Shown: positions 3,566 through 18,733 of the stretch, in pieces
Numbering within the stretch: position 1 is the stretch's first letter
Layout: each line of letters begins with the position of its first letter
Source of the DNA: Deltaproteobacteria bacterium
GTDB taxonomy: Bacteria; UBA10199; JADGCS01
Assembly: GCA_024233595.1 (NCBI GenBank)
Contig: JACKPK010000001.1
Location: 153,260-217,259, forward strand
DNA: 64,000 bases
Direction of reading: 5' to 3'
Notes under the pieces: model-generated
What the model was told of the DNA's origin: nothing
Databases searched by the model: none
What the model saw: only the letters and a program-made list of their open reading frames with translations
Position numbers and translations under genes: made by a program

Positions 3566-4955
3566 GATAAGGATGATGGCAAGTGAATGAGTCCCGCCAC
3601 CTGAAAGTAAACTAATAAGCTCATGGCATCCATTAAAAGAAATGCACAAAACGCCCGAACTGAGTTTAGAGAATCCCTGGTTTAAAGACGATCAAAAACA
3701 AATGGCATAAAAAAGGTTCCAAAAGACCGAAAAAACAGCCACGCTGAACACTTAAAAGACAAAGCCAATGCTCATTTTCTATTTCGCCCTATGAAAACGC
3801 AAAACGCCATAGGCATAAACCAAAGTTGCCAACACCAAGGACACCAAAAAAGTAATGCTGTTTTGTCCCCACAAAGCACGGCGTGCGCGTGTTTGTTCAA
3901 AATCTTTACTCAAGACACCTTCATACACCAGGGTCGTGCTTTGGGTCGCAATGCTTCCCCTAAACACCAAGACCAAGGGCGCAAAACAAAAAGCCACAAC
4001 CTCTTTTGGCAAGTGACCAAAAGTAACGCAAATGATTTCCGGAACAAATGGGCCCACCCAAAAACAACAGCCCATACCAAACGGCACCGAAGCAAAGGCT
4101 CTCCAAAAGAAAGTCTTCAATGGCCTCTGGTTCTACCCTACCAATTGCAAAACTTCCTCGTGCTGCTCATCGCGAATGTAATCGATGACATCGTCCACCA
4201 TGACCACACCAGCCAATTTGCCTTCGCGATCCACAACCGGGAGACTCACAAAATTATACTCTTCTACATAGCGAGCAGCTTTTCTTACCCAGATCATACA
4301 AGCTCACAGTATGAGCACATGCGAATCATGAATTCTTTGAGCACACGTTTGCTTAGCACTTGCAAAAGCTGTTTAAGCGAAATGACGCCAACCAGGTTTT
4401 CAAAGTCATCGGTGATGTAAGGTAAAAAAGTTTTCGACTTCATCCGGCATCTGCTTGTTGGATTTTAGAAATCGCCTCGGCAGCTGCATGTCGTTTTGGT
4501 TCACGGAAAAAACGTTCACCGCCATGAAATACGACCACAACTATCGTCTTCGTACTGCGAAGTCGTTTACTTTAACGCTGCATGGGGCCTTTGATCACAC
4601 GTTGACAAAGCTCTGCTACCGCCAAATCCTCGTCTGAATCTTCAGCCAATAAATTCGCGGCTTCGTCTTCCGAAAGATTCTGCAAAACATGCACAATGTG
4701 TTCTTTGTCTTTGGTGATTTCCAGATAGGTCTCGACAAACTTGCCCTCTAACTCCACAAAAGCATCGGCTTCGATCTCGGTGCCTTTGATGAGCTTCAAC
4801 AAGGCCACAGCCTCGTCATCAGCAAACTGCCTTAAAACAGAAGCCACTTCCGAGGGGTGAGACTTTAGGAGCAAACGTTTCGCATGCTCCAAGGCATCGC
4901 GTCGCATGAGACGCTTGATGCTTTGTAATAGGATGTCAGATTTGCTGACCTTCAT
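3562..4955 (-). CDS. mgtE: Magnesium transporter MgtE, full-length span but multiply frameshifted
   Basis: MgtE_N (SHPSEVASVL, NLSEDEAANLL), CBS pair fragments (LPVVDREGKLAGVVMVDDVIDYI) and C-terminal TM remnants (GTFFMPFVFDRL, MDAMSLLVYFQVA) ending in a TGA at 3562 that overlaps the recO ATG. Confidence 0.8.
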
Positions 4956-5849
4956 GATATTTGCATGTTATTGAATTTGCCCAAACCTTGGAATTCGGTG
5001 AAGCGGGTCTTGATGTCTTCAAAGTTGATTTCTTTCAATCGTTCACAACTGAATTTTTCGACATTAAAACTAGCCATGACCGAACCACAAATCACAGCGG
5101 TTTTCATGGAGTCGTAATCAAAGCGTTCACAACGATCAAGGTAACCAAGCATACCACCAGCAAAGCCTCCACCAGCACCTGTTGGGTCATTCCGTCATCA
5201 ATTGGCAAACTGGAGCGCTGAAATCTCTTGTCCAAAAACAAAAAGCGCCGTATTCCCCTTGTTTGATCACAACAATTTTGGGGCCCCACTCTTGCAACTG
5301 ACGAGCTGCTTTCACAAGATTGGATTGCTCTGTCAGCATGCGGGCTTCGCCTTCGTTCAGGGTCAGCAAGTCCACCTTAGCCAAGGTTTTAATAACCGAT
5401 TCTTTTTTGTGATTGATCCACAGATTCATGGTGTCCATCACAACCAATTCTGATTCACCCGCTTTATCGATAACGGCACGTTGCTGATCAGGATCAATGT
5501 TGGCCAAAATAAAATGCGAATTTTTGTAAGACTCAGGCAAAACCGGCTCGTAGTTTTCGATCGTTGAGCTGTGCCAAAGTGTGCGCCGTGTTCATGTCAT
5601 TACTCTGGTGCCCCACCAACGAAAGGTTTTCTTGCCTTGCATCACCTGCAAACCATCGGTGTGATACCGGTCGCGGAACATGTGCTCATCGGGAAAGTCA
5701 TCCCCCACCACGGCAATCATATTCACATCGGTGAAAAAACTCGCCGACATAGAAAAGTGCGACGCTGTGCCGCCCAAGCCATCTTTGATTTCTCCAAAAG
5801 GCGTTTTCACATCGTCAAAAGCCACGGTTCCAATTACTGTTACTGCCAT
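4952..5849 (-). CDS. PfkB/ribokinase-family carbohydrate or nucleoside kinase, frameshifted
   Basis: Three ORF pieces: VIGTVAFDDVKTP...LGGTASHFS; LANIDP...MDTMNLWI...LNEGEA...VVIKQGEYGA; anion-hole segment PTGAGGGFAGG; stop overlaps the mgtE start (ATGA). Confidence 0.85.
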
Positions 5850-5923
5850 TTTTACATTCCTTTCATCTAGCCGTTGGATCTACTATTTTGCCACAACAAG
5901 CCTCTTCTATCTTAAACTGTTCC

Positions 5924-6787
5924 CTAGTCCTTAAAATATTTCCCAATGATGGGTTCTAATCTTTGGATCACATCTTTGCTGATCAATTCACGCTTGGTCA
6001 TGACCGCCGATTTCAAAACGCCTTCGCTCTCGAGCTTTTGATCAAAATCAAAGGCCTGTACCGCAGACACCAAGATTTTTTGAGCGTTTGCGATGTTTTT
6101 ATTCAGAGTCGCAATCACCTGCTCTGTTGTAACATGATCATGCTCCGGATGCCAACAATCATAGTCAGTCGAAAGCGCCAAAGTGGCGTAATCGATTTCG
6201 GCTTCACGCGCGAGCTTGGCTTCTTGCAGGTTGGTCATGCCAATGACATCGGCACCCAATTGACGATAAAAATTGCTTTCGGCAATGGTCGAAAACTGTG
6301 GCCCTTCCATGCACACATAAGTGCCTTTCTGATGACACTCAGCTCCAATTTTCTGGCAAGCCGCAATCAAGATTTTGCGCAAATAGCCGCTCACGGGGTG
6401 AGCCAAACTCACGTGCCCCACAATGCCTTTTTCGAAAAAAGTGGATGGACGCTCACGCGTGCGATCAATGAACTGATCCACAATCACCATATGCCCGGGC
6501 ACGATCTCTTGTCTTAAAGAGCCCACCGCCGAAACCGAAAAAATAGCTTTTACACCGACTTTTTTAAAAGCCCAAATGTTAGCGCGGTAATTGATTTCTG
6601 AAGGCGAGTACCGATGCCCTGCCCCATGGCGCGCCAAAAACACAACCGGCACACCTGCCAATTTGCCAATGCGCAAGGGATCAGAAGGCATCCCAAAAGG
6701 AGTTTCGATTTGACGCTCTTCTTCAAGTTGAAATTCTTCCATGTCGTAAAGGCCACTGCCTCCGATGATCCCAATGTACTGACTCAT
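5924..6787 (-). CDS. mtnP: S-methyl-5'-thioadenosine phosphorylase
   Basis: IGIIGGSGLY, FLARHG, NYRANIWA, EGPQFST, GMT..EA.LARE, STDYDCW motifs. Confidence 0.93.
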   Translation of the reverse strand: MSQYIGIIGGSGLYDMEEFQLEEERQIETPFGMPSDPLRIGKLAGVPVVFLARHGAGHRYSPSEINYRANIWAFKKVGVKAIFSVSAVGSLRQEIVPGHMVIVDQFIDRTRERPSTFFEKGIVGHVSLAHPVSGYLRKILIAACQKIGAECHQKGTYVCMEGPQFSTIAESNFYRQLGADVIGMTNLQEAKLAREAEIDYATLALSTDYDCWHPEHDHVTTEQVIATLNKNIANAQKILVSAVQAFDFDQKLESEGVLKSAVMTKRELISKDVIQRLEPIIGKYFKD

Positions 6788-6851
6788 AATGTTATCCTTT
6801 TTTGAGTTCTCAGGTCTTGCACTTTACGCTTTGCTCTGCGAGAAAACACTC

Positions 6852-8228
6852 ATGCAAGACATTGCCCTAGATAAAATTTTGCAAGCGACTAAAAACAGCG
6901 ACAATGCGTTTGCTGAAATCTTTATTGAGTCATCAGAATTAGAGGAACTCAACTTTAGCAACAACAAACTCGAAAGCTACAAACACGGCAGCGACCAAGG
7001 AGCCGGCATTCGTCTCATTGAAGGTCTTGATTCGGCTTACGCCTACAGCAACGACCTGAATGAACAAAACCTGCACGCCTTAGCGCAATCCTTAAAATCA
7101 GCCTTTCCCGCAGCTGCATCGCATAAAAAGATCACCCTCAAAAAACAAGGAACAAATTACCTTAAAAACAGCAAGCATCTTGACCCCTTACAAGACCACA
7201 AGCAGAAGCTTGCCCTCTGTGAAGAAGCCAACGAGCTGGCCAGACAAAAAAGCCCACTTGTGCACCAGGTCGAGATCCAATTGAATCAAAGTTTATCGCA
7301 ACGCCTCATTGCCAACTCAGATGGTCTTTTGGTCAACAGCCCTCTTGATCAAATCACGCTCGCCATCACAATCACCATTAAAAAAGACGACGACCTCATC
7401 ACCGCGCTAGAAGCTTTGGCGTTCACAGGAAACTTTAAAGACATCCTCAAACAAGACTGGAAATCAAAAGTCATCCAAACCACAGAACGAGCCATTCAGC
7501 AGCTTTCCGCACGCACAATCAAAGGCGGTCCCATGCCAGTTGTGATCTCGAGCGAAGCCGGTGGCACTTTGATTCACGAAGCCGTTGGCCATGGTTTAGA
7601 AGGTGACTTGGTTGCAGAAAATTTATCCGTGTTCAAAAACAAACTCGGCACCGCGATTGCCTCTCCTAAAATCACAGTGATTGACGATCCCACACTCAGT
7701 AAAAATTATGGGTCTTACCCTTACGATGACGAAGGCACCAAAACACAAAAAACAGTTTTGATCGAAAACGGCATTTTAAAAAACTACCTTTGCGATCGCC
7801 TTGCTGCCAAACGTTTGCAACTGCAACCCACCGGCAATGCCAGGCGTGAATCATACGAACACCGACCACTTGTGCGCATGAGTAACACTTACGTGGCGCC
7901 AGGGTCGGACAACCCACAAGAAATTTTAGCCAGTGTCGACAAGGGGCTTTTTGTCAAACGCATGGGAGGTGGGCAAGTCGATACCGTCACCGGCGAATTT
8001 GTGTTTGAAGCCGAAGAAGCCTACCTGATCAAAAACGGAAAAATCACCGATCCGATTAAGAACGCTTCATTAATTGGCAATGGCCCGCGCTTGCTCAAAG
8101 AAATCGACATGATTGGCAATGATTTGCACTTTTGTTCTGGAGTGTGTGGCAAAGACAATCAATCCGTGCCTGTCACAGACGCGATCCCCACTTTGCGTAT
8201 CCCCAACATGGTTGTGGGCGGAAAATAA
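6852..8228 (+). CDS. tldD: TldD/PmbA family metallopeptidase
   Basis: GTLIHEAVGHGLEGD (HExxxH), DDEG, GNARRESY, RMSNTY, GVCGKDNQSVPV; ATG at 6852 preferred over the upstream start in the ORF track. Confidence 0.9.
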   Translation: MQDIALDKILQATKNSDNAFAEIFIESSELEELNFSNNKLESYKHGSDQGAGIRLIEGLDSAYAYSNDLNEQNLHALAQSLKSAFPAAASHKKITLKKQGTNYLKNSKHLDPLQDHKQKLALCEEANELARQKSPLVHQVEIQLNQSLSQRLIANSDGLLVNSPLDQITLAITITIKKDDDLITALEALAFTGNFKDILKQDWKSKVIQTTERAIQQLSARTIKGGPMPVVISSEAGGTLIHEAVGHGLEGDLVAENLSVFKNKLGTAIASPKITVIDDPTLSKNYGSYPYDDEGTKTQKTVLIENGILKNYLCDRLAAKRLQLQPTGNARRESYEHRPLVRMSNTYVAPGSDNPQEILASVDKGLFVKRMGGGQVDTVTGEFVFEAEEAYLIKNGKITDPIKNASLIGNGPRLLKEIDMIGNDLHFCSGVCGKDNQSVPVTDAIPTLRIPNMVVGGK

Positions 8229-8230
8229 AA

Positions 8231-8956
8231 CTAAAATAAATTTTTAAAAGCCGCACGACGAACGCGCTTTTTGTGATTCGAAACACTGTCCCACAAAGCT
8301 AAGCTCAAAGGACATTGAGCCTCTGCCGCTTGCACTTGGTCATAATCAAAAACAGCTGTTGTTCTGATCAAAGCACTTGTTTGCTCTGCGCTTAAAGGCT
8401 GATTGTTTTGCTCGCATAAAAAATCAAGTTGCAAGAGACTTTCTAAAGAAAGAGACGCGGCCTTGTTTTGGGCACAAGCACCACAACGCACACAATCGAG
8501 TGCCTGCTGATTTTTAGGAACACCTGCGAATGCCTTTGCCTGCTTGTAGTTTTGTTCTGTGAGCGAATGCTCGTGAAACCCAATGGGAACAATCCACTCT
8601 GCCAAAGCTTTTGTTTCGTCTTCGCTTTGGCGCAGGTCAACCCAAAGATCACGGATCACAGAAAACCCTGCCAAAGGCTCGACAACAATGGGCTGCACCA
8701 ATTCATCAAGAACCACATCGCGAATCGACAAAGCAGCCCCGTTAACAATCACCATGGTTTTACTTTGCTCAAAAGACGACTGCGCTTCCCACACAACCGG
8801 CGCGACTGATTCGCCGTTTAAATTAATGGGGCGTTCTTGAATGACTTGCAAAGCTGTTTCTAAAGTGGCTCTCTCTGGTAACTGCAATTGAAATTGCTCC
8901 CAGTAAAAACTCTCGTTTGCTTTTTGGCGCCGGATTTTTAACAACACTGTTTTCAT
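8231..8956 (-). CDS. Divergent SdhB-like protein retaining only one [4Fe-4S] ligand set
   Basis: Bacillus-type SdhB scaffold (IQERPINLNGE..PVVWE, QPIVVEPLAGFSVIRDLWVD, AAFKNLF). No [2Fe-2S] Cys; CVRCGAC plus distal QCP retained. Confidence 0.85.
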   Translation of the reverse strand: MKTVLLKIRRQKANESFYWEQFQLQLPERATLETALQVIQERPINLNGESVAPVVWEAQSSFEQSKTMVIVNGAALSIRDVVLDELVQPIVVEPLAGFSVIRDLWVDLRQSEDETKALAEWIVPIGFHEHSLTEQNYKQAKAFAGVPKNQQALDCVRCGACAQNKAASLSLESLLQLDFLCEQNNQPLSAEQTSALIRTTAVFDYDQVQAAEAQCPLSLALWDSVSNHKKRVRRAAFKNLF

Positions 8957-10560
8957 TATCCTGCCACCTCCAAGCGCTGACGTCGCTTTGGCTTAACAAT
9001 GGCGTGCTGCAAGTTTTTGAGCTGGTAATCGTAACGCCCTTGTTTAAGCGTGATGCAAGAATCTTGTAGGAAAAGATCATCGCGTGGTTCGTAAAAACCA
9101 ATTTTGTAATGCACGCCACGCGATTCATCGCGTTTTTCGGCCGCCATACTCAACGCTGGCGCCAATTCCAAAGCAGTGAATAAATCACGAGCGCGTGCTA
9201 ATTCTTGGTTGGCGTGCTCAGATTGATCATGCAAACCAAGACGACTGGCCTTTTCTTTAAGGGCTTCACAACGCGTGGCAAATTTTTGCAAGACAGCGTT
9301 GTCGCGCATAGGACCCAAGGCAAAATGACAGAGTTCGCTCAATTCTCTTTTGAGCGCGCTGAGGTTTTCGGGTCCGCTTAATTCCAAAAGATCTTGCACC
9401 CGTCTTTTTTGATCATCTTTAAGAGCGGGTAAAAATTGCTTGGCACTAAGAGAAGAATCACCACCCCAATGCGTTTTCTGCATAAGCTGATTGGCCAGGT
9501 CCAAACCCGTTTGCATCTGCAGAGCAAAGGCATTGCTTGGCAGACAACCGGCACCAAACAAGGCATTGCTGGCAAAGCCAATGGCATAAAGCCCCGACAA
9601 ATCTGTTTGGTGTGCGTCATCTGTGGCAAGCCCACCTAAAAAGTGTTTGAACCCAGGACGCACCGGGATTTGTTGATCGCCCTGCTCTAAGAAAATGCTC
9701 TCGCCCGTTTTAGCCGTGGCTTGCACCTTGGCCATGGCACGGCTGATTAAAAAATCAGGCAAGTCCTGCCAATCGCTATACCAGTCTTCTAAAAAGTAAA
9801 AACGCTCGCCATTGTTTTTTTGCAAAAACAAGCGACCAGCTTTTTGATTTAAAACATCGAGCGATAAGTAAGAGCTGCCCACTTGCGAAGACGCAGTCAA
9901 AGGATGAAAGGCAATGAACTCAGCGCCCTGCAACGAAGCGCCTTCTTTTAAGCAGCTCAATAAAAAGCCATCGTTTTGAAACGATGACTGTGAAAAAAAC
10001 AAAGATTGCGCAAATCCTTCTGCACAAACCACCGCTTCAGCAGAAAAGGCTTCGATTTCCATGCTGGCCGCGTTCTCGGCCACAACACCCGCCACACCTT
10101 GCTCGGTGTTTGCCAAAGCCAAGGGACGCCAGTGTTCTAATACACGCACGCGATGACTGGCTTGATGACAACGCAACTGCTGCAATAATAATTGGTAAGC
10201 GCGCTGCTCATTGAATTCATAAAAACCGTTCAGACCCAAAGATGAATTGGCGGCTTTGAGCTCTAGCCCCAAGGCTTGCAAGTATTGTAAATAAGAAGCG
10301 CTAGATTGACAGAGTTCGCGGATCTTAATGTGATTGCCTAAGAAACCCGCGAAACGCACGCTGTCTAAAAAATGTTGGTCTTGATCTTTTTTGCTTAAGC
10401 TAGCGCGAAACACACTTTGGCCAAGAGCCTGCGGCGCCACACCCAAAGTGCGTTGCGAAAACAACAACACCTGATGCCCTGCCATTGCCATTTCGTTGGC
10501 CAAACAAATGCCTGCAACCGAAGCGCCTAAGATGATCACACGTTGAGAATGATTTTTCAC
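8956..10560 (-). CDS. Divergent SdhA-like flavoprotein homolog lacking the covalent-FAD His and catalytic Arg residues
   Basis: Collinear with Bacillus-type SdhA (VIILGASVAG, EHWRPL, EFIAFHP, YFLEDWY, KHFLGGL, GLYAIG, GPENL..L..EL, RDESRGVHY). GTG at 10560 overlaps the upstream TGA; its TAA overlaps the sdhB-like ATG. Confidence 0.85.
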   Translation of the reverse strand: MKNHSQRVIILGASVAGICLANEMAMAGHQVLLFSQRTLGVAPQALGQSVFRASLSKKDQDQHFLDSVRFAGFLGNHIKIRELCQSSASYLQYLQALGLELKAANSSLGLNGFYEFNEQRAYQLLLQQLRCHQASHRVRVLEHWRPLALANTEQGVAGVVAENAASMEIEAFSAEAVVCAEGFAQSLFFSQSSFQNDGFLLSCLKEGASLQGAEFIAFHPLTASSQVGSSYLSLDVLNQKAGRLFLQKNNGERFYFLEDWYSDWQDLPDFLISRAMAKVQATAKTGESIFLEQGDQQIPVRPGFKHFLGGLATDDAHQTDLSGLYAIGFASNALFGAGCLPSNAFALQMQTGLDLANQLMQKTHWGGDSSLSAKQFLPALKDDQKRRVQDLLELSGPENLSALKRELSELCHFALGPMRDNAVLQKFATRCEALKEKASRLGLHDQSEHANQELARARDLFTALELAPALSMAAEKRDESRGVHYKIGFYEPRDDLFLQDSCITLKQGRYDYQLKNLQHAIVKPKRRQRLEVAG

Positions 10561-11177
10561 AGCACGCTCCATTGGTTCACAAAAGCGATGACTCCCAAGC
10601 CAAATAACAACGCGTTCCCACCTAACCAAAGATTACGGAGCAATGAACCTTGATCCCAGCGTGAGACAAAAGCGTGTTCTGTGAAAAAAGACCGCCCTAA
10701 AAGATAAAGGTACGCAATGAGTGCTGCAAAACCAACCCAGTAAGCGCTCATCAGAAAGACATTGGCGTGCAAAGCAAGCACCATCTGATAAACCTGATGA
10801 CCCATGAGTCCCTGTTGCACAGCTTGCCCCCAATAAAAAAGGTGCGCGCCCCAAAAGGCCGCAACCAAAGGCAAAAGCAAATTTTGCAAAGTGGGAAACA
10901 AAAAGATTTTTTTGTTTAAAACCTGCGGCAACACCAACAGCTCTTTTAATAAAAACAAACTCAGAGGGACAATGAGAAACACGAGCTCAACAAATAAAAA
11001 GCCTGGGAATTGTTGCCACAAAAACAACGCCTCCAAAACCTGTTTTGGAGAATACAAAAGCGTGTAAACAGCCAACAGCTGCCACAACACAAAGCCAAAT
11101 AGGCAAAGCAGTGCCCACGCGTTTGCAAAAAACGCAAAAAGGTAGTTTTTGATGACGTCTTGAGGACAGGCGGTCAT
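10557..11177 (-). CDS. Divergent SdhC-like five-TM membrane anchor lacking most heme His ligands
   Basis: About 206 aa with five hydrophobic segments, first gene of the C-A-B order, directly downstream of mdh; only one His at a heme-ligand-like position (FWGAHL). Confidence 0.7.
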   Translation of the reverse strand: MTACPQDVIKNYLFAFFANAWALLCLFGFVLWQLLAVYTLLYSPKQVLEALFLWQQFPGFLFVELVFLIVPLSLFLLKELLVLPQVLNKKIFLFPTLQNLLLPLVAAFWGAHLFYWGQAVQQGLMGHQVYQMVLALHANVFLMSAYWVGFAALIAYLYLLGRSFFTEHAFVSRWDQGSLLRNLWLGGNALLFGLGVIAFVNQWSVL

Positions 11178-11222
11178 GCGCTCATCATGTGCTCTCACTG
11201 TGCAAAGGTCAAGCTTGAAGGC

Positions 11223-12176
<954 letters not shown>

Positions 12177-12187
12177 CTATTTTTAAA

Positions 12188-13443
12188 TTACATATTAGAC
12201 ACAATCGCGTCCCCAAATTCAGAGCATTTGAGAAGCGTTGCGTTTTCCATTAAACGTTCAAAATCGTAAGTGACCTTTTTTTCTGAGATGGTTTTTTCCA
12301 TGGCGCTCACGATTAAATCCGCCGCTTCCTGCCACCCAAGGTACTCTAACATGAGCACACCAGATAAAATCACCGATCCAGGATTCACTTTGTCTAAACC
12401 AGCGTACTTAGGCGCTGTGCCGTGAGTGGCTTCAAAAATAGCCACACCCGTGTTGTAGTTGATGTTGCCACCAGGCGCAATGCCAATGCCACCAACCTGA
12501 GCCGCCAAAGCGTCTGACACATAGTCACCATTTAAATTGAGAGTCGCGATGACATCGTACTCAGCAGGACAAGCAAGATTTGCTGCAAGAACGCATCGGC
12601 AATGACATCTTTAATGATGAGTTCTTTGCCATCTTTTTTAATGACCTGCCAAGGACCACCATCTAAATCTTTTGCGCCAAACTCATCTTTAGCCACTTGG
12701 TAACCCCAATCACAAAACGCACCTTCAGTGAATTTCATGATGTTGCCTTTGTGCACCAAGGTGACCGACTTGCGGTTGTGATCTAAGGCGTAGTTGATGG
12801 CCGCACGCACCAAACGAGCTGTTCCTTCTTGCGAAACAGGTTTAATGCCAATGCCTGATGTTTCTGGGAAACGAATTTTTTTAACGCCCATTTCGTTTTC
12901 GATGAAAGCGATGACTTTTTTGGCTTCGTCGGTTCCTTCTGCCCATTCAATGCCGGCGTAGATGTCTTCTGTGTTTTCACGAAAGATAACCATATCGACA
13001 AGCTCTGGTTTTTTAACCGGAGAAGGCACGCCCGAAAAATAACGCACAGGGCGCAAACAGGTGTAAAGGTCCAAACGCTGACGCAAGGTCACGTTCAAAC
13101 TACGAATGCCTTTGCCAACAGGCGTGGTCAAAGGTCCTTTAATGGACACAAGATGTTTTTCGATTTCGGTGATTGTTTCTTCAGGCAAAAAGTTTGCGGG
13201 GCAATCGTTACCGTAAACCTCTTTGGCTTTTTCGCCAGCGTAAACTTCGTACCAAGCGATTTTACGATCGCCGTTGTAGGCTTTTTGCACAGCAGCATCG
13301 AACACACGCGACGCAGCTTTCCAGATATCGGGGCCAATGCCATCACCTTCAATGAAAGGGATGATTGGGTTTTGCGGAACATCGAGTTTTCCGTTTTTAA
13401 TGGTGATATTTTGGCCATCACTGGGTCGTTTTAAGTAAGTCAT
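12188..13443 (-). CDS. icd: NADP-dependent isocitrate dehydrogenase, single 1-bp deletion near 12560
   Basis: [46 protein letters not shown]. Restoring one C gives [33 protein letters not shown], joining both ORF-track pieces. Confidence 0.95.
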
Positions 13444-13675: not shown

Positions 13676-14344
13676 ATGTTTTCGTTTCTTTGTTCCTCTC
13701 TTGGTAAAAAATACCTCATGGCTTTAACAGGCCTTGGCCTCATCGGTTTTGTGATCGCACACTTAATCGGAAACCTTCAGGTTTTTGCTGGTCCCGAAGC
13801 CATTAACTCTTATGCTCAAACTTTAAAAGACCTTGGCCCCCTTCTTTGGGTCGCACGCGGTGGTCTCATTGTGCTCTTTGTCACTCACCTCACTTTAGCG
13901 TTGCAACTTAACCGCACCAACCAAATGGCTCGGCCCATTGCTTACGCCAAAGCCGACACCATCAAAGCCACCCTCACTTCGCGCACCATGGTTTTGAGTG
14001 GCCTCCTTATATTATTGTATGTGATCTACCACCTCTTGCACTTCACCATCCACATCATCGACCCATCCTACACAGCGCTTCTGGACGCGCAAGGTCGTCA
14101 CGATGTCTACCAAATGATCATCGCCGGCTTTTCGCACCCTGTGATCACAACCACTTATTTGCTCGCCATGTTTGTGTTGGCGGCTCACTTGCACCACGGC
14201 GCATCCAGTGTGTTTCAAACATTAGGACTTAACAACGGCAAATACCGTCCTATCACTTCTCTTATTGGACCAGCTTTGGCATTCTTGGTGTTTGTGGGTT
14301 ACGGCTCTATCCCTGTTGGGGTCATGTTGGGCTGGATCAACTAA
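13676..14344 (+). CDS. sdhC: Succinate dehydrogenase/fumarate reductase diheme cytochrome b subunit
   Basis: SSLGKKYLMALTG, His ligands in FVIAHL, FVTHL, IYHLLH and AAHLHHG. Confidence 0.93.
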   Translation: MFSFLCSSLGKKYLMALTGLGLIGFVIAHLIGNLQVFAGPEAINSYAQTLKDLGPLLWVARGGLIVLFVTHLTLALQLNRTNQMARPIAYAKADTIKATLTSRTMVLSGLLILLYVIYHLLHFTIHIIDPSYTALLDAQGRHDVYQMIIAGFSHPVITTTYLLAMFVLAAHLHHGASSVFQTLGLNNGKYRPITSLIGPALAFLVFVGYGSIPVGVMLGWIN

Positions 14345-14392
14345 GGGCATTGCAGATCATTTCATTATTTTTAATTATTTAGGATAACGCTT

Positions 14393-16306
14393 ATGAAACT
14401 CGATTCAAAAATTCCTAGTGGGCCAATCGAAAAAAAATGGGATCAACACAAGTTCGACATGAAACTTGTGAACCCGGCCAACAAAAGAAAATTCAAAGTC
14501 ATCATTGTGGGAAGTGGTTTGGCTGGAGCTTCTGCTGCCGCCACCATGGCTGAGCTCGGATACGACGTTCACTGCTTCACCTTCCACGATAGCCCAAGAC
14601 GCGCGCACAGCATTGCGGCTCAGGGTGGCATCAACGCCGCTAAAAATTACCAGAACGACGGCGACTCCATTTACCGTTTGTTCTACGATACCGTCAAAGG
14701 CGGTGACTTCCGATCGCGCGAAGCCAACGTTTACCGATTGGCACAAGTGAGCGTGAACATCATCGATCAATGCGTGGCGCAAGGTGTTCCTTTTGCACGC
14801 GACTACGGTGGCTATTTGGCCAACCGCTCTTTTGGTGGCGCGCAGGTTTCAAGAACCTTTTACGCTCGCGGGCAAACAGGCCAACAACTTTTATTGGGTG
14901 CCTACTCTGCTTTGAGCCGTCAGATTGGCGCGGGCAAAGTCAAAATGTACAACCGCACCGAAATGCTCGATTTGGTTTTGGTCGATGGTCACGCACGCGG
15001 CATCATCACTCGTAATTTAAAAACCGGTAAAGTCGAATCACACGCGGGCGACGCAGTGGTCTTGGCCACTGGTGGTTACAGCAACGTTTTCTTTTTATCG
15101 ACCAACGCCATGGGTTGTAACGTGACAGCCGCTTACCGTGCTTACAAAAAAGGCGCGGGCTTTGCGAACCCTTGTTACACACAGATTCACCCCACTTGCA
15201 TCCCTGTTTCGGGCGATCACCAAAGTAAACTCACTTTGATGTCCGAATCACTCAGAAACGACGGCCGCATTTGGGTTCCCAAACAACAAGGCGATAAACG
15301 CAAGCCAAGTGAAATTCCCGATGCAGAACGCGATTACTACCTAGAGCGCAAGTACCCAAGCTTTGGTAACTTGGCACCACGCGATATCGCATCGCGCTCT
15401 GCTAAAGAAGCCTGTGATGAAGGTCGCGGGGTTGGCGAAACTGGATTGGGTGTTTACCTTGATTTTAGAGATTCAATCAAACGTTTGGGCAAAGATGTCA
15501 TTGAGCAACGCTATGGCAACTTGTTCGAAATGTACGAACGCATCACAGACGAAAACCCATACCAAGTGCCCATGCGCATCTTCCCTGCTCCTCACTACAC
15601 CATGGGTGGACTTTGGGTCGATTACAACCTCATGAGCACAATCCCAGGCTTGCATGTTTTGGGTGAAGCTAACTTCTCAGATCATGGTGCCAACCGTTTG
15701 GGGGCCAGCGCTCTCATGCAAGGTTTGGCAGATGGTTATTTTGTCATCCCTTACACCATTGGTCATTACTTTGCTTCGCACAAAATCGAAAAGATCACCG
15801 AAGATCACCCTGCGTTTAAAGAAGCCGAAGCCGAGGTGAATCAAAAAATCAACAAACTCCTCAATGTTAAAGGCAGCCGCACAACAGATTCGTTCCACAA
15901 AGAATTAGGACGTGTCATGTGGGATAACTGCGGCATGGCTCGTAACAAAAAAGGTTTGGAAGAAGCCCTTAAAAAAATCCCAAGCATTCGTGAAGAATTC
16001 TGGAACAACGTTAAGGTTCTTGGCGAAAACGAAAACTACAACGTGGCACTCGAAAAAGCGGGCCGCGTTGCGGATTTCTTGGAGTTTGGTGAAATGATGT
16101 GCTTAGATGCCCTTCGTCGCGAAGAATCGTGTGGTGGTCATTTTAGAACCGAACACCAAACAGAAGAAGGCGAAGCCAAACGAAACGACAAAGACTTTTC
16201 TCATGCTACAGTTTGGGAGTTCCAAGGTGTTGGCAAAGAACCTGTTGAGCACCGCGAGCAACTCGAGTTTGAAAACGTGGCATTGGCAGTAAGAAGTTAT
16301 AAATAA
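14393..16306 (+). CDS. sdhA: Succinate dehydrogenase/fumarate reductase flavoprotein
   Basis: [17 protein letters not shown] (covalent-FAD His), [39 protein letters not shown] all intact. Confidence 0.97.
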
Positions 16307-16319
16307 AAAGGACAAGACC

Positions 16320-17063
16320 ATGAATTTGACCTTACACATTTGGCGACAAAAAGATCGCAACGACACAGGAAAAATGACCATCTACAAACTAGAAGACGTC
16401 AGCCCTGATATGTCTTTTTTGGAAATGTTAGACGTCCTAAACGAAAAGTTAGAAGTCGAAGGCGAAGAGCCCGTTGCTTTTGACCACGACTGTCGTGAAG
16501 GCATTTGCGGCACCTGCTCGCTCATGATCAATGGCAAAGCGCACGGACCACGTGCCAGCACAACCACTTGCCAATTGCACATGCGTGAATTCAAAGACGG
16601 CGACGAGATTTTCATTGAGCCTTGGCGCGCTGAAGCTTTCCCGATTGTGCGAGACTTAGTTGTCGATCGTTCTGCTTTTGACAAAGTCATTCAGGCAGGC
16701 GGCTACATTTCGGTGAATACGGGTAACGCGCAAGACGCCAACTGCATCCCTATTTCAAAAGAGCAAGCCGATATCGCTATGGATGCTGCGGCTTGCATTG
16801 GTTGCGGTGCCTGTGTGGCTCAATGTAAAAATTCATCTGCCATGTTGTTTGTGGCCGCTAAAGTGTCTCAGTTTGCCAACTTGCCCCAAGGTCAAGCAGA
16901 ACGCTACGCACGTGCAAAAAACATGGTGGCCGTCATGGACGACCAGCACTTTGGCAGCTGCACCAACCAATACGAATGTGAAGCGGCTTGCCCCAAAGAC
17001 ATCAGCGCTGATTTTATCGCGCAGCTAAACCGAGACTTTATGAAAGCAGGTCTGACAAAATAA
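16320..17063 (+). CDS. sdhB: Succinate dehydrogenase/fumarate reductase iron-sulfur subunit
   Basis: [10 protein letters not shown]...[28 protein letters not shown]: all three cluster motifs present. Confidence 0.96.
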
Positions 17064-17684: not shown

Positions 17685-18733
17685 GAGTTCAATAAGTAAA
17701 TGCAACACCTAGTCATAAAAGAACCTCTCTGGGCTAGAGGATGTTCAAGAGTGAAAAGAGGTTGTTTACAGCTGTCATCTCTAAGAGGTATGTGATTCAA
17801 AAGGCTTTATGTGAATCACAAGTCCATTCGAGAGATAGCTAGGATTCTAGAACGATCCCCCAGTACAATCAGCAGAGAGCTAAGCCGTAATAGCTTAGAG
17901 AGTGGTCGGTATTTAGGTAAAAATGCCGAGAAAGTATCTGATGCAAGAAGGCGTCTTTCTAGAAAAGTGGAAAGAATCCAAAATATCCAAACTAGAGATT
18001 TTATTGAAGAAAAGCTCAAACAGGATTGGTCTCCAGAGCAGATTTCTGGGCGTTTAAAGCAATTAAAGGACTTTCGCCATGTCTGCCATGAAACAATCTA
18101 TCAGTGGATATACAGTGATCGTCCAGATCTGATTGTCTATTTAACCCGTAAGTTTAAAACGAGAATGCCAAGGGGTTATTCATTTAGATCTGGTCCTGGA
18201 AAGCATATTCCTTTCAAAACCCCCATATCAGAGCGTCCTCAAGAAGTGGATGATCGCAAAGAGTTTGGCCATTGGGAATCAGATCTTGTGGTTTCAAACA
18301 AAAATACCAGTTCGTTGTTAGTGACGGTTGAGAGAAAATCGCGTTTTGTGATCATTGGTAGAGTGGGCAATAAAAAGCCTCAAAACACCAGAAAGGCCCT
18401 CATAAACAACCTTTCCGAGGTTCCAGAGCATATGAGAAAATCAATTACATATGACAATGGGATGGAGAATAGAGATCATTGGAAGACCAATAAGGTTTTA
18501 AAAACCAAGTCCTACTTCTGCCAACCTTACCATAGCTGGGAGAAAGGAAGTGTTGAGAATACCAATGGGCTAATCAGAAGGTATCTACCTAAAAAGACAG
18601 ACCTGAGGAGAGTCAAAACCAAGAGATTGAAAGAAATACAGAATCTGCTAAACCATAGACCTAAAAAATGTCTCAACTTTTTAACCCCTTACGAGGTCTT
18701 CTCCTCCGGGTGTTGCACTTAGTTATTGAATCC
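17685..18733 (+). mobile_element. IS30-family insertion sequence
   Basis: 26-bp imperfect terminal inverted repeats (GAGTTCAATAAGTAAATGCAACACCT at 17685-17710 versus the reverse complement of 18708-18733, 21/26 identical) enclosing a transposase; no target duplication recognised. Confidence 0.9.
17811..18722 (+). CDS. IS30-family DDE transposase
   Basis: HTH SIREIARILERSPSTISREL, WSPEQIS, HETIY, GHWESD, ITYDNGME, WEKGSVENTNGLIRRYLPK, LNHRPKKCL. The extreme N-terminus (RYVIQKAL) lies in another frame just upstream. Confidence 0.93.
   Translation: MNHKSIREIARILERSPSTISRELSRNSLESGRYLGKNAEKVSDARRRLSRKVERIQNIQTRDFIEEKLKQDWSPEQISGRLKQLKDFRHVCHETIYQWIYSDRPDLIVYLTRKFKTRMPRGYSFRSGPGKHIPFKTPISERPQEVDDRKEFGHWESDLVVSNKNTSSLLVTVERKSRFVIIGRVGNKKPQNTRKALINNLSEVPEHMRKSITYDNGMENRDHWKTNKVLKTKSYFCQPYHSWEKGSVENTNGLIRRYLPKKTDLRRVKTKRLKEIQNLLNHRPKKCLNFLTPYEVFSSGCCT

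Follow-up and report, generated by a model that had tools for sequence, protein, structure and literature searches.

Why would a bacterium keep a complete, translationally coupled complex II operon open after most of the cofactor ligands of its products have gone? The question is raised by three genes, termed sdhC', sdhA' and sdhB', that follow the malate dehydrogenase gene mdh in a stretch of 64,000 nucleotides from contig JACKPK010000001.1 of a Deltaproteobacteria bacterium (the window; positions refer to this whole stretch in forward-strand numbering). We propose, with a probability of roughly 0.7 and on the strength of sequence comparisons, that the three products form a non-catalytic, membrane-anchored relic complex that would retain one [4Fe-4S] cluster, be maintained by weak purifying selection and be co-expressed with Mdh. 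The genes and junctions on which this proposal rests are the following.

11223-12161, minus strand: mdh, malate dehydrogenase, an open reading frame (ORF) of 312 amino acids directly upstream of sdhC' in the same operon.
10557-11177, minus strand: sdhC', five-helix membrane anchor relic of 206 amino acids; an alternative GTG at 11198 would give 213 amino acids.
8956-10560, minus strand: sdhA', flavoprotein relic of 534 amino acids from a GTG start; an ATG at 10572 would give 538 amino acids.
8231-8956, minus strand: sdhB', iron-sulfur subunit relic of 241 amino acids, the last gene of the operon.
10557-10560, minus strand: GTGA overlap of the sdhC' stop with the sdhA' GTG start, read from the sequence.
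8954-8958, minus strand: TAATG overlap of the sdhA' stop with the sdhB' ATG start, with GGAGG 9 nucleotides upstream.

The original prediction, made by eye from this DNA, had described stop-free ORFs in sdhC-A-B order after mdh with the GTGA and TAATG overlaps preserved, and the ORF list and the sequence agree with it on both counts. The three genes comprise 981 codons with zero in-frame stops, Shine-Dalgarno motifs precede the starts of sdhA' (GGAG) and sdhB' (GGAGG), and the GC content by codon position follows the order GC1 > GC3 > GC2, as in the neighbouring genes. A promoter and terminator scan of the locus gave no signal above chance. The degenerate residues described below are not assembly errors, because two short-read assemblies match the window exactly: the Logan contig L110 over positions 5684-12002 and the contig L111, from a second run, over 6611-10703, both at 100% identity. 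Neither short-read contig restores the canonical residues.

The activity of complex II requires a set of His and Arg residues for dicarboxylate binding and proton transfer, and its electrons reach quinone through an FAD-[2Fe-2S]-[4Fe-4S]-[3Fe-4S] chain. The SdhA' protein is still recognised by the Pfam families FAD_binding_2 and Succ_DH_flav_C (E-values of 3.5e-17 and 6.6e-18, respectively), and its best NCBIfam model, PRK08641, fails the curated threshold with 178.7 bits versus a cut-off of 855. A MAFFT alignment of SdhA' with neighbouring and Bacillus-type SdhA sequences shows that its Rossmann motif reads GASVAG in place of GxGxxG, RSHS is replaced by GVAP with loss of the covalent-FAD His, SES by SLD with the proton-shuttle catalytic Arg changed to Asn, PRD by PDF, and NRL (of GANRLG) by GCL with the substrate Arg changed to Cys. 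Each of these five replacements had been called in the original prediction and was confirmed by the alignment. In addition, the His of the HYxMGG motif is displaced by one position (KHFLGG), leaving Lys at the canonical site, and the His-Pro of the HPT motif is the sole dicarboxylate-site residue left of the four tested. SdhA' is approximately 45-55 amino acids shorter than Bacillus-type SdhA; the deletion in the capping region, earlier put at about 30 amino acids, is real and amounts to approximately 40. An AlphaFold2 (AF2) model obtained from a 27-sequence alignment had a predicted local distance difference test score (pLDDT) of 84.7 and a predicted template modelling score (pTM) of 0.88, and its top Foldseek matches in the PDB were SdhA/FrdA chains with template modelling (TM) scores of 0.80-0.87. 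Binding of FAD by SdhA' is doubtful.

The SdhB' protein matched Fer2_3 alone in Pfam and likewise fell short of the curated threshold of its best NCBIfam model (PRK08640; 84.9 bits versus a cut-off of 244). It retains four of the 11 Cys, C155, C158, C161 and C215, arranged as CxxCxxC plus a final CP. We take these four to be the [4Fe-4S] ligands, following the established assignment of the first three Cys of motif I and the last Cys of motif II to that cluster. The ligands of the [2Fe-2S] and [3Fe-4S] clusters are absent, and the remaining [4Fe-4S] cluster is probably structural. In the AF2 model of SdhB', built from a shallow alignment, the N-terminal ferredoxin-like domain reached a pLDDT of approximately 90, and the best Foldseek matches were SdhB chains. 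SdhC' gave zero matches in Pfam or NCBIfam; it contains five hydrophobic segments, and its alignment to the canonical Bacillus-type anchor of genome G040 upheld the earlier count of one heme His out of four, located in helix 4. Because the window lacks the first and the last cluster as well as the active site, the complex should be incapable of respiration, of fumarate reduction and of electron transfer from a flavin to quinone, and the losses in the active site and among the cluster ligands argue, as predicted, for a complex that would be non-catalytic as a succinate:quinone oxidoreductase.

The nearest relative of the window operon is P0105, whose loci L120 and L121 both derive from one set of runs (L120 comes from Logan SRR28385527). 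L120 has the same mdh-C'-A'-B' order, overlapping junctions including an equivalent 4-nucleotide overlap, and shares with the window the derived motifs GAS(V/L)AG and G(A/F)GCLP. The proteins of the two lineages are 87% identical for Mdh, 72% for PNP, 25-29% for SdhA' and 25% for SdhB', with BLASTP E-values of 2e-26 for SdhA' and 6e-21 for SdhB'; SdhC' is unrecognisable between them, its frame being open and hydrophobic in both. In L120 (positions 3798-4529; also L121), SdhB' has none of the four [2Fe-2S] Cys and all seven that ligate the [4Fe-4S] and [3Fe-4S] clusters, and would thus represent an intermediate stage of cluster loss. Under random loss of Cys, the cluster-wise patterns of the window (4 Cys) and of L120 (7 Cys) each have a chance of 1/330. 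Such cluster-by-cluster loss argues that selection retained every cluster until the whole of it had become dispensable.

The original prediction had proposed a tree as a check, and in the tree obtained here the window nests among the canonical mdh-linked Bacillus-type enzymes of its class. The trees were inferred with FastTree from matches to the degenerate query and midpoint-rooted, and long-branch effects on the pairing of the window with L120 are possible; this pairing is backed by the shared derived residues and by synteny. The nesting runs from the window and L120 outwards through the family, the order, a clade supported at 0.99 and the remaining degenerate lineages to the canonical enzymes of the class, and the supports along this path in the gene tree, from window plus L120 to the canonical mdh-linked enzymes, are 0.73, 0.97, 0.85, 0.99 and 0.85. 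The 0.99-supported clade includes G011, in which the covalent His alone is lost, and G009, G010 and G020, in which catalytic residues are lost. G040 and 15 other genomes of the class carry a fully canonical Bacillus-type succinate dehydrogenase (SDH) after mdh. The degenerate sequences nest within canonical ones and follow taxonomy, which indicates vertical descent with stepwise erosion. In the mdh-linked SdhA of G011 (G011:C133, locus L023), the covalent-FAD His is replaced by Gly, and all catalytic residues are present, with 11 Cys. It is possible that this protein represents the first erosion step, and it is perhaps an enzyme acting as a fumarate reductase only.

A genome search recovered a syntenic icd/mdh-sdhC'-sdhA'-sdhB' block in all relatives found from the family and the order, where it usually adjoins the same divergent canonical operon as in the window; the mdh-sdhC'A'B' order is repeated in loci L112, L115, L118 and L120 and in the relative genomes. 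The window mdh product is 72-79% identical to that of the order relatives. The catalytic Arg pair is absent in every order relative except G011, the covalent-FAD His in every one except G006, and the capping domain of SdhA' is deleted in several of them (457-485 amino acids). The ortholog search thus bore out the expectation of syntenic operons with the same SdhA' losses across the order. Closer relatives were not recovered: HMMER searches of 1.84 billion representatives returned many similar proteins and nothing more than 33% identical to the window SdhA', word-based searches with SdhA' and SdhB' yielded only the window's own proteins and canonical SDHs, the best match in an mdh-anchored metagenome scan was 74% identical, and the five species found by searching the GTDB family included none closer.

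By motif, the catalytic set is missing in 120 of the 192 SdhA-like sequences collected, and 83 of the sequences without it (78 distinct; approximately 78 clusters at 50% identity) form a single clade with a support of 0.94, which contains the window SdhA'. Members of this dead-flavoprotein clade are named 'FAD-binding protein' or 'hypothetical protein' at NCBI and come from metagenome-assembled genomes labelled 'Deltaproteobacteria bacterium'. With the window they have in common the loss of catalytic residues, a C-terminal RxESRGxH motif, fast evolution and the icd-mdh-C'A'B' synteny. The original prediction had been aware of no described system of this kind; the operon is not unique, and among the many complex II relatives of this clade, which has no name of its own, it is the one most heavily eroded. 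Among seven metagenomic members, the C'-A'-B' order was found in all five contigs that reach upstream of sdhA', and in three of these five the genes follow mdh. The SdhB' of each of the seven has a full or nearly full set of Cys. The 11 Cys are also kept in 13 other partner SdhB' proteins and in 22 genomes of the class, barring two partial exceptions (the partner of P0170, and G016), and most other clade members retain GxGxxG. The loss of iron-sulfur ligands is specific to the window and L120 rather than a family trait. The broader clade is a more interesting object than the window operon alone.

Two further observations concern this clade. The whole capping domain of SdhA' is deleted in L013 (8101-9534), L014 (6978-8363), L019 (2336-3742) and many proteins of 440-485 amino acids, and some of these members also lack GxGxxG, though their SdhB' partners keep 11 of 11 Cys. 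The SdhA' frame of G004 stops with TAA at residue 432 (L015 9047-9049, at 38 bases from the end of contig G004:C273), and the near-identical P0046 (562 amino acids) reads through this position, so that the stop is probably a contig-end error.

To estimate selection on the operon, the window and L120 were compared by the method of Nei and Gojobori (NG86), which yields the nonsynonymous (dN) and synonymous (dS) substitutions per site. The neighbouring genes gave a dN of 0.095 and a dS of 1.5 for mdh and a dN of 0.225 and a dS of 2.5 for PNP. The dN values of sdhA', sdhB' and sdhC' were 0.99, 0.98 and 1.2, respectively, with dS saturated in all three; for this reason the dN/dS ratio (omega) of the sdh' genes was approximated using the dS of the neighbours. 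Other pairs in the clade gave a rough omega of 0.17-0.40. In G002, G003 and G004, the canonical SdhA proteins are 78-82% identical and the SdhA' proteins 35-47%, and fast evolution is a property of the whole clade. Polymorphism within the population offered no ratio of nonsynonymous to synonymous variants (pN/pS), as contigs from different runs are identical, with zero polymorphism. Global amino acid identity was rejected as a measure of selection, because a neutral simulation yields 22-30% by alignment artefact.

In a neutral simulation of the three ORFs, the probability of finding no stop in the 981 codons had fallen to 0.05 by 0.02 substitutions per site and was 0 from 0.05 upwards. The window and L120 are separated by a dS of at least 1.5, that is, at least 0.75 per lineage, and both lineages keep the three ORFs and the overlapping stop and start codons. 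The window SdhA' retains 50 of 74 clade-conserved columns at an overall identity of approximately 29%, among them the complete RxESRGxH motif as well as GGL..D and G.YA.G. Every clade-conserved residue is the canonical residue, and no new active site is therefore apparent. Operon polarity was considered as a cause of the open frames and rejected: sdhB' is the last gene, the next gene after it, tldD, is convergent, and no gene lies downstream of sdhB' on the minus strand. Long-term neutral decay is excluded by the combination of three findings, namely that two lineages keep the coupled frames, that ligands were lost cluster by cluster and that the structural core is kept, as the original prediction had argued from the frames and the coupling.

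Several results weigh against a selected relic complex. Protein change in the sdh' genes is close to saturation; their rough omega is 0.4-0.65, compared with 0.06-0.09 for mdh and PNP, and for this closest pair it departs from the dN/dS well below 1 that had been expected at the outset. Global identities of the sdh' proteins lie near the noise floor of the neutral simulation, and constraint appears to act on a minority of sites only. The BLASTP similarity of SdhC' between the window and L120 was not significant, the C-terminal domain of SdhB' was modelled at low confidence (pLDDT of 50-70), and the loss of iron-sulfur ligands is seen in two lineages only, both from one sample set. Function may have been lost very recently, in approximately the last 2% of the divergence, and no partner or phenotype found in these comparisons points to a specific role.

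A pseudogene operon in neutral decay that by luck still lacks a stop or frameshift would account for the very fast amino acid turnover (dN of about 1 versus L120), the disappearance of most cofactor ligands, an SdhC' that cannot be recognised between sisters, and the presence of a working SDH next to the operon. Such decay would have to be very recent, and we regard it as highly improbable: neutral frames of this length would already be stop-free with a probability of just 0.05 after 0.02 substitutions per site, yet the window and L120 have each kept frames and junctions through a dS of at least 1.5, the loss of Cys is cluster-wise and non-random, 50 of the 74 conserved columns and the codon-position GC of normal genes are kept, and the 981 codons, whose DNA is the same in two short-read assemblies, contain neither stops nor frameshifts. 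It is also improbable, if a little less so, that the complex is still a redox enzyme in which SdhA' has been adapted to a new substrate, its electrons passing to quinone via SdhB' and SdhC'. The SdhB' proteins of the wider clade have all three clusters, most of its SdhA' proteins have the core FAD-binding motifs, and three genomes of the class have a degenerate complex as their sole complex II-like enzyme; for the wider clade a redox role is plausible. The window, however, lacks the ligands of the [2Fe-2S] and [3Fe-4S] clusters and has a broken GxGxxG; by the geometry of complex II, the gap from flavin to [4Fe-4S] would exceed the tunnelling limit of about 14 Angstrom, and no cluster would lie beside the quinone site. 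Moreover, the former active-site positions vary among members, and no new conserved active site is visible.

Selection could also act on something other than the trimer, either on one subunit (such as SdhA', in the role of a soluble binding protein) or against interfering truncations, that is, truncated subunits that harm the assembly of the real SDH or membrane integrity. Constraint is indeed uneven, with SdhA' and the N-terminal domain of SdhB' recognisable between the sisters and SdhC' not, and other members have suffered capping deletions or loss of GxGxxG without loss of the operon. Against this stand the presence of the three genes and both coupled junctions in every lineage examined, the open and hydrophobic SdhC' frames of both sisters, and the fact that deletion of the whole operon, which would end any toxicity, is unseen in the order; on balance we consider this explanation unlikely. 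We therefore favour the non-catalytic relic complex, in which SdhC', SdhA' and SdhB' presumably assemble together. A broader and tentative possibility is that the mdh-linked dead-flavoprotein clade constitutes a distinct, so far undescribed functional class of membrane complexes. In most members the iron-sulfur subunit and the anchor would go on handling electrons, to an end other than the oxidation of succinate, with the window and L120 as a purely non-redox scaffold or sensor end stage. If so, one [4Fe-4S] cluster would hold the end-stage complex together, and the complex would be made alongside malate dehydrogenase.

The likely replacement for the respiratory function lies next to the operon, as follows.

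13676-17063, plus strand: canonical sdhCAB of another subtype (PRK07573/PRK07570, b558 anchor), divergent from icd-mdh.

A distance of 2.5 kb separates the starts of this operon and of sdhC'; the original prediction had likewise noted a canonical operon of a different subtype, divergently transcribed, at this distance. All three products exceed the NCBIfam cut-offs (SdhA 1200 versus 866 bits, SdhB 427 versus 243, SdhC 187 versus 96), SdhA and SdhB have the complete set of catalytic residues and Cys, and the operon is presumed to encode a working SDH. Among 41 relatives, 13 have an SDH of the PRK07573 type, which shares 71-79% identity with proteins from many phyla; a scan of genome contigs with the canonical SdhA returned solely cross-phylum homologs at this level of identity and zero close relatives. 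The cross-phylum similarity is a hint of horizontal spread. G034 carries both SDH types, each canonical, and G005 and G008 carry a third canonical SDH type. These observations fit a displacement of the mdh-linked enzyme by an acquired SDH. In G016, G018 and G032, the degenerate complex was found together with a NadB or NadB-like protein, and canonical SdhA was not detected; the G032 genome is 100% complete in 3 contigs. Either these three organisms have no SDH activity, or the degenerate complex does something essential there. The xenologous replacement suggested earlier is thus supported by the patchy second SDH adjoining the operon, and it is insufficient for every case because G016, G018 and G032 have the degenerate complex alone.

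We suggest the following course of events. The ancestral mdh-linked Bacillus-type complex II of the class was inherited vertically and heavily eroded to give sdhC'A'B'. The covalent-FAD His disappeared first, then the dicarboxylate-binding and proton-shuttle residues of SdhA', throughout the order, and third the heme His of SdhC'. SdhB' followed with its [2Fe-2S] ligands, in the window and L120, and finally with its [3Fe-4S] ligands, in the window only. The divergent neighbouring SDH of another subtype would have taken over the respiratory job. The leftover parts would be a five-helix anchor, a protein of the SdhB fold with one full [4Fe-4S] site and a protein of the SdhA fold with a damaged dinucleotide motif. 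Weak purifying selection would keep the translation of full-length proteins, the coupling of the genes, the core that defines the fold and one entire cluster. The products would most likely serve structure or regulation rather than redox chemistry, as a membrane-anchored assembly produced along with Mdh. The comparisons establish the homology, the residue losses and their sequence, the upkeep of the ORFs and the rapid evolution; that the three proteins assemble, that the cluster is structural and what the complex does are inferred.

The closest known system is the SdhCAB of the B. subtilis type (type B; PRK08641/PRK08640, b558 anchor), which the window operon resembles in its best-scoring families, its C-A-B order, its single five-helix anchor and the folds of its products, and from which descent is indicated by the canonical orthologs after mdh in 16 relatives of the class. 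It differs from this system in lacking the covalent His and both catalytic Arg, in its displaced active-site His, in retaining four of 11 Cys and one of four heme His, and in scoring 4-5 times below the cut-offs. Within the dead-flavoprotein clade the window is an extreme variant with its 4 of 11 Cys, nearly all of the other sampled members having 11 of 11. Pseudoenzymes are well known among kinases, proteases and phosphatases. A full-text search of the accessible literature yielded no description of a bacterial pseudo-complex II or of a whole respiratory complex that persists as a cofactor-depleted three-subunit pseudo-complex. In the Tim18-Sdh3 module of yeast TIM22, paralogs of complex II membrane subunits serve in a non-respiratory, heme-free assembly, as listed in a review of non-canonical complex II assemblies (PMC10238741). 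This nearest precedent illustrates that parts of complex II can persist in a structural capacity. That module is eukaryotic, involves membrane subunits only and has a known partner complex, whereas the present case is a whole bacterial operon of three subunits.

The locus and its relatives represent a natural, ordered series of losses, from the canonical enzyme through the covalent His, the active site and the [2Fe-2S] cluster to the [3Fe-4S] cluster. With this series one can ask which parts of the architecture serve folding and assembly rather than catalysis, and what non-respiratory role keeps the complex alive. Automated metabolic reconstructions would miscount sdhC'A'B' as a second SDH or a fumarate reductase.

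The conserved block begins with the following gene.

12188-13443, minus strand: icd, isocitrate dehydrogenase, present as two ORFs; first gene of the icd-mdh-sdh' block.

The icd gene is split near 12521-12535 by an apparent 1-bp deletion that shifts the frame after ...QQIL, and its orthologs are intact at 419 amino acids (for example, in G002). Either a real lesion or an assembly error of the sort found at 4109-5683 may underlie this frameshift; the site lies outside the independent contigs. Over positions 4109-5683, the window and L110 differ in 73 alignment columns, mostly indels of 1-6 bases in patches, which disrupt a PfkB-family kinase gene (intact in L110, with 306 amino acids) plus the next gene; the 7.9-kb overlap of the two is otherwise identical. 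The window assembly has local low-quality patches, and other genes of this genome hidden by indels may be artefacts. The split PfkB and frameshifted icd genes had raised the suspicion of a pseudogene-rich genome, which was rejected for PfkB because that gene is intact in L110. The indels over 4109-5683 stem from the assembly, and the seeming pseudogenes in the vicinity do not speak for genome decay. On the other side of the locus, an IS30-like transposase gene (HTH_38 + rve; 17811-18722, plus strand) follows the canonical sdhCAB after 0.75 kb, and between the two is an ORF of 159 amino acids that matched no family.

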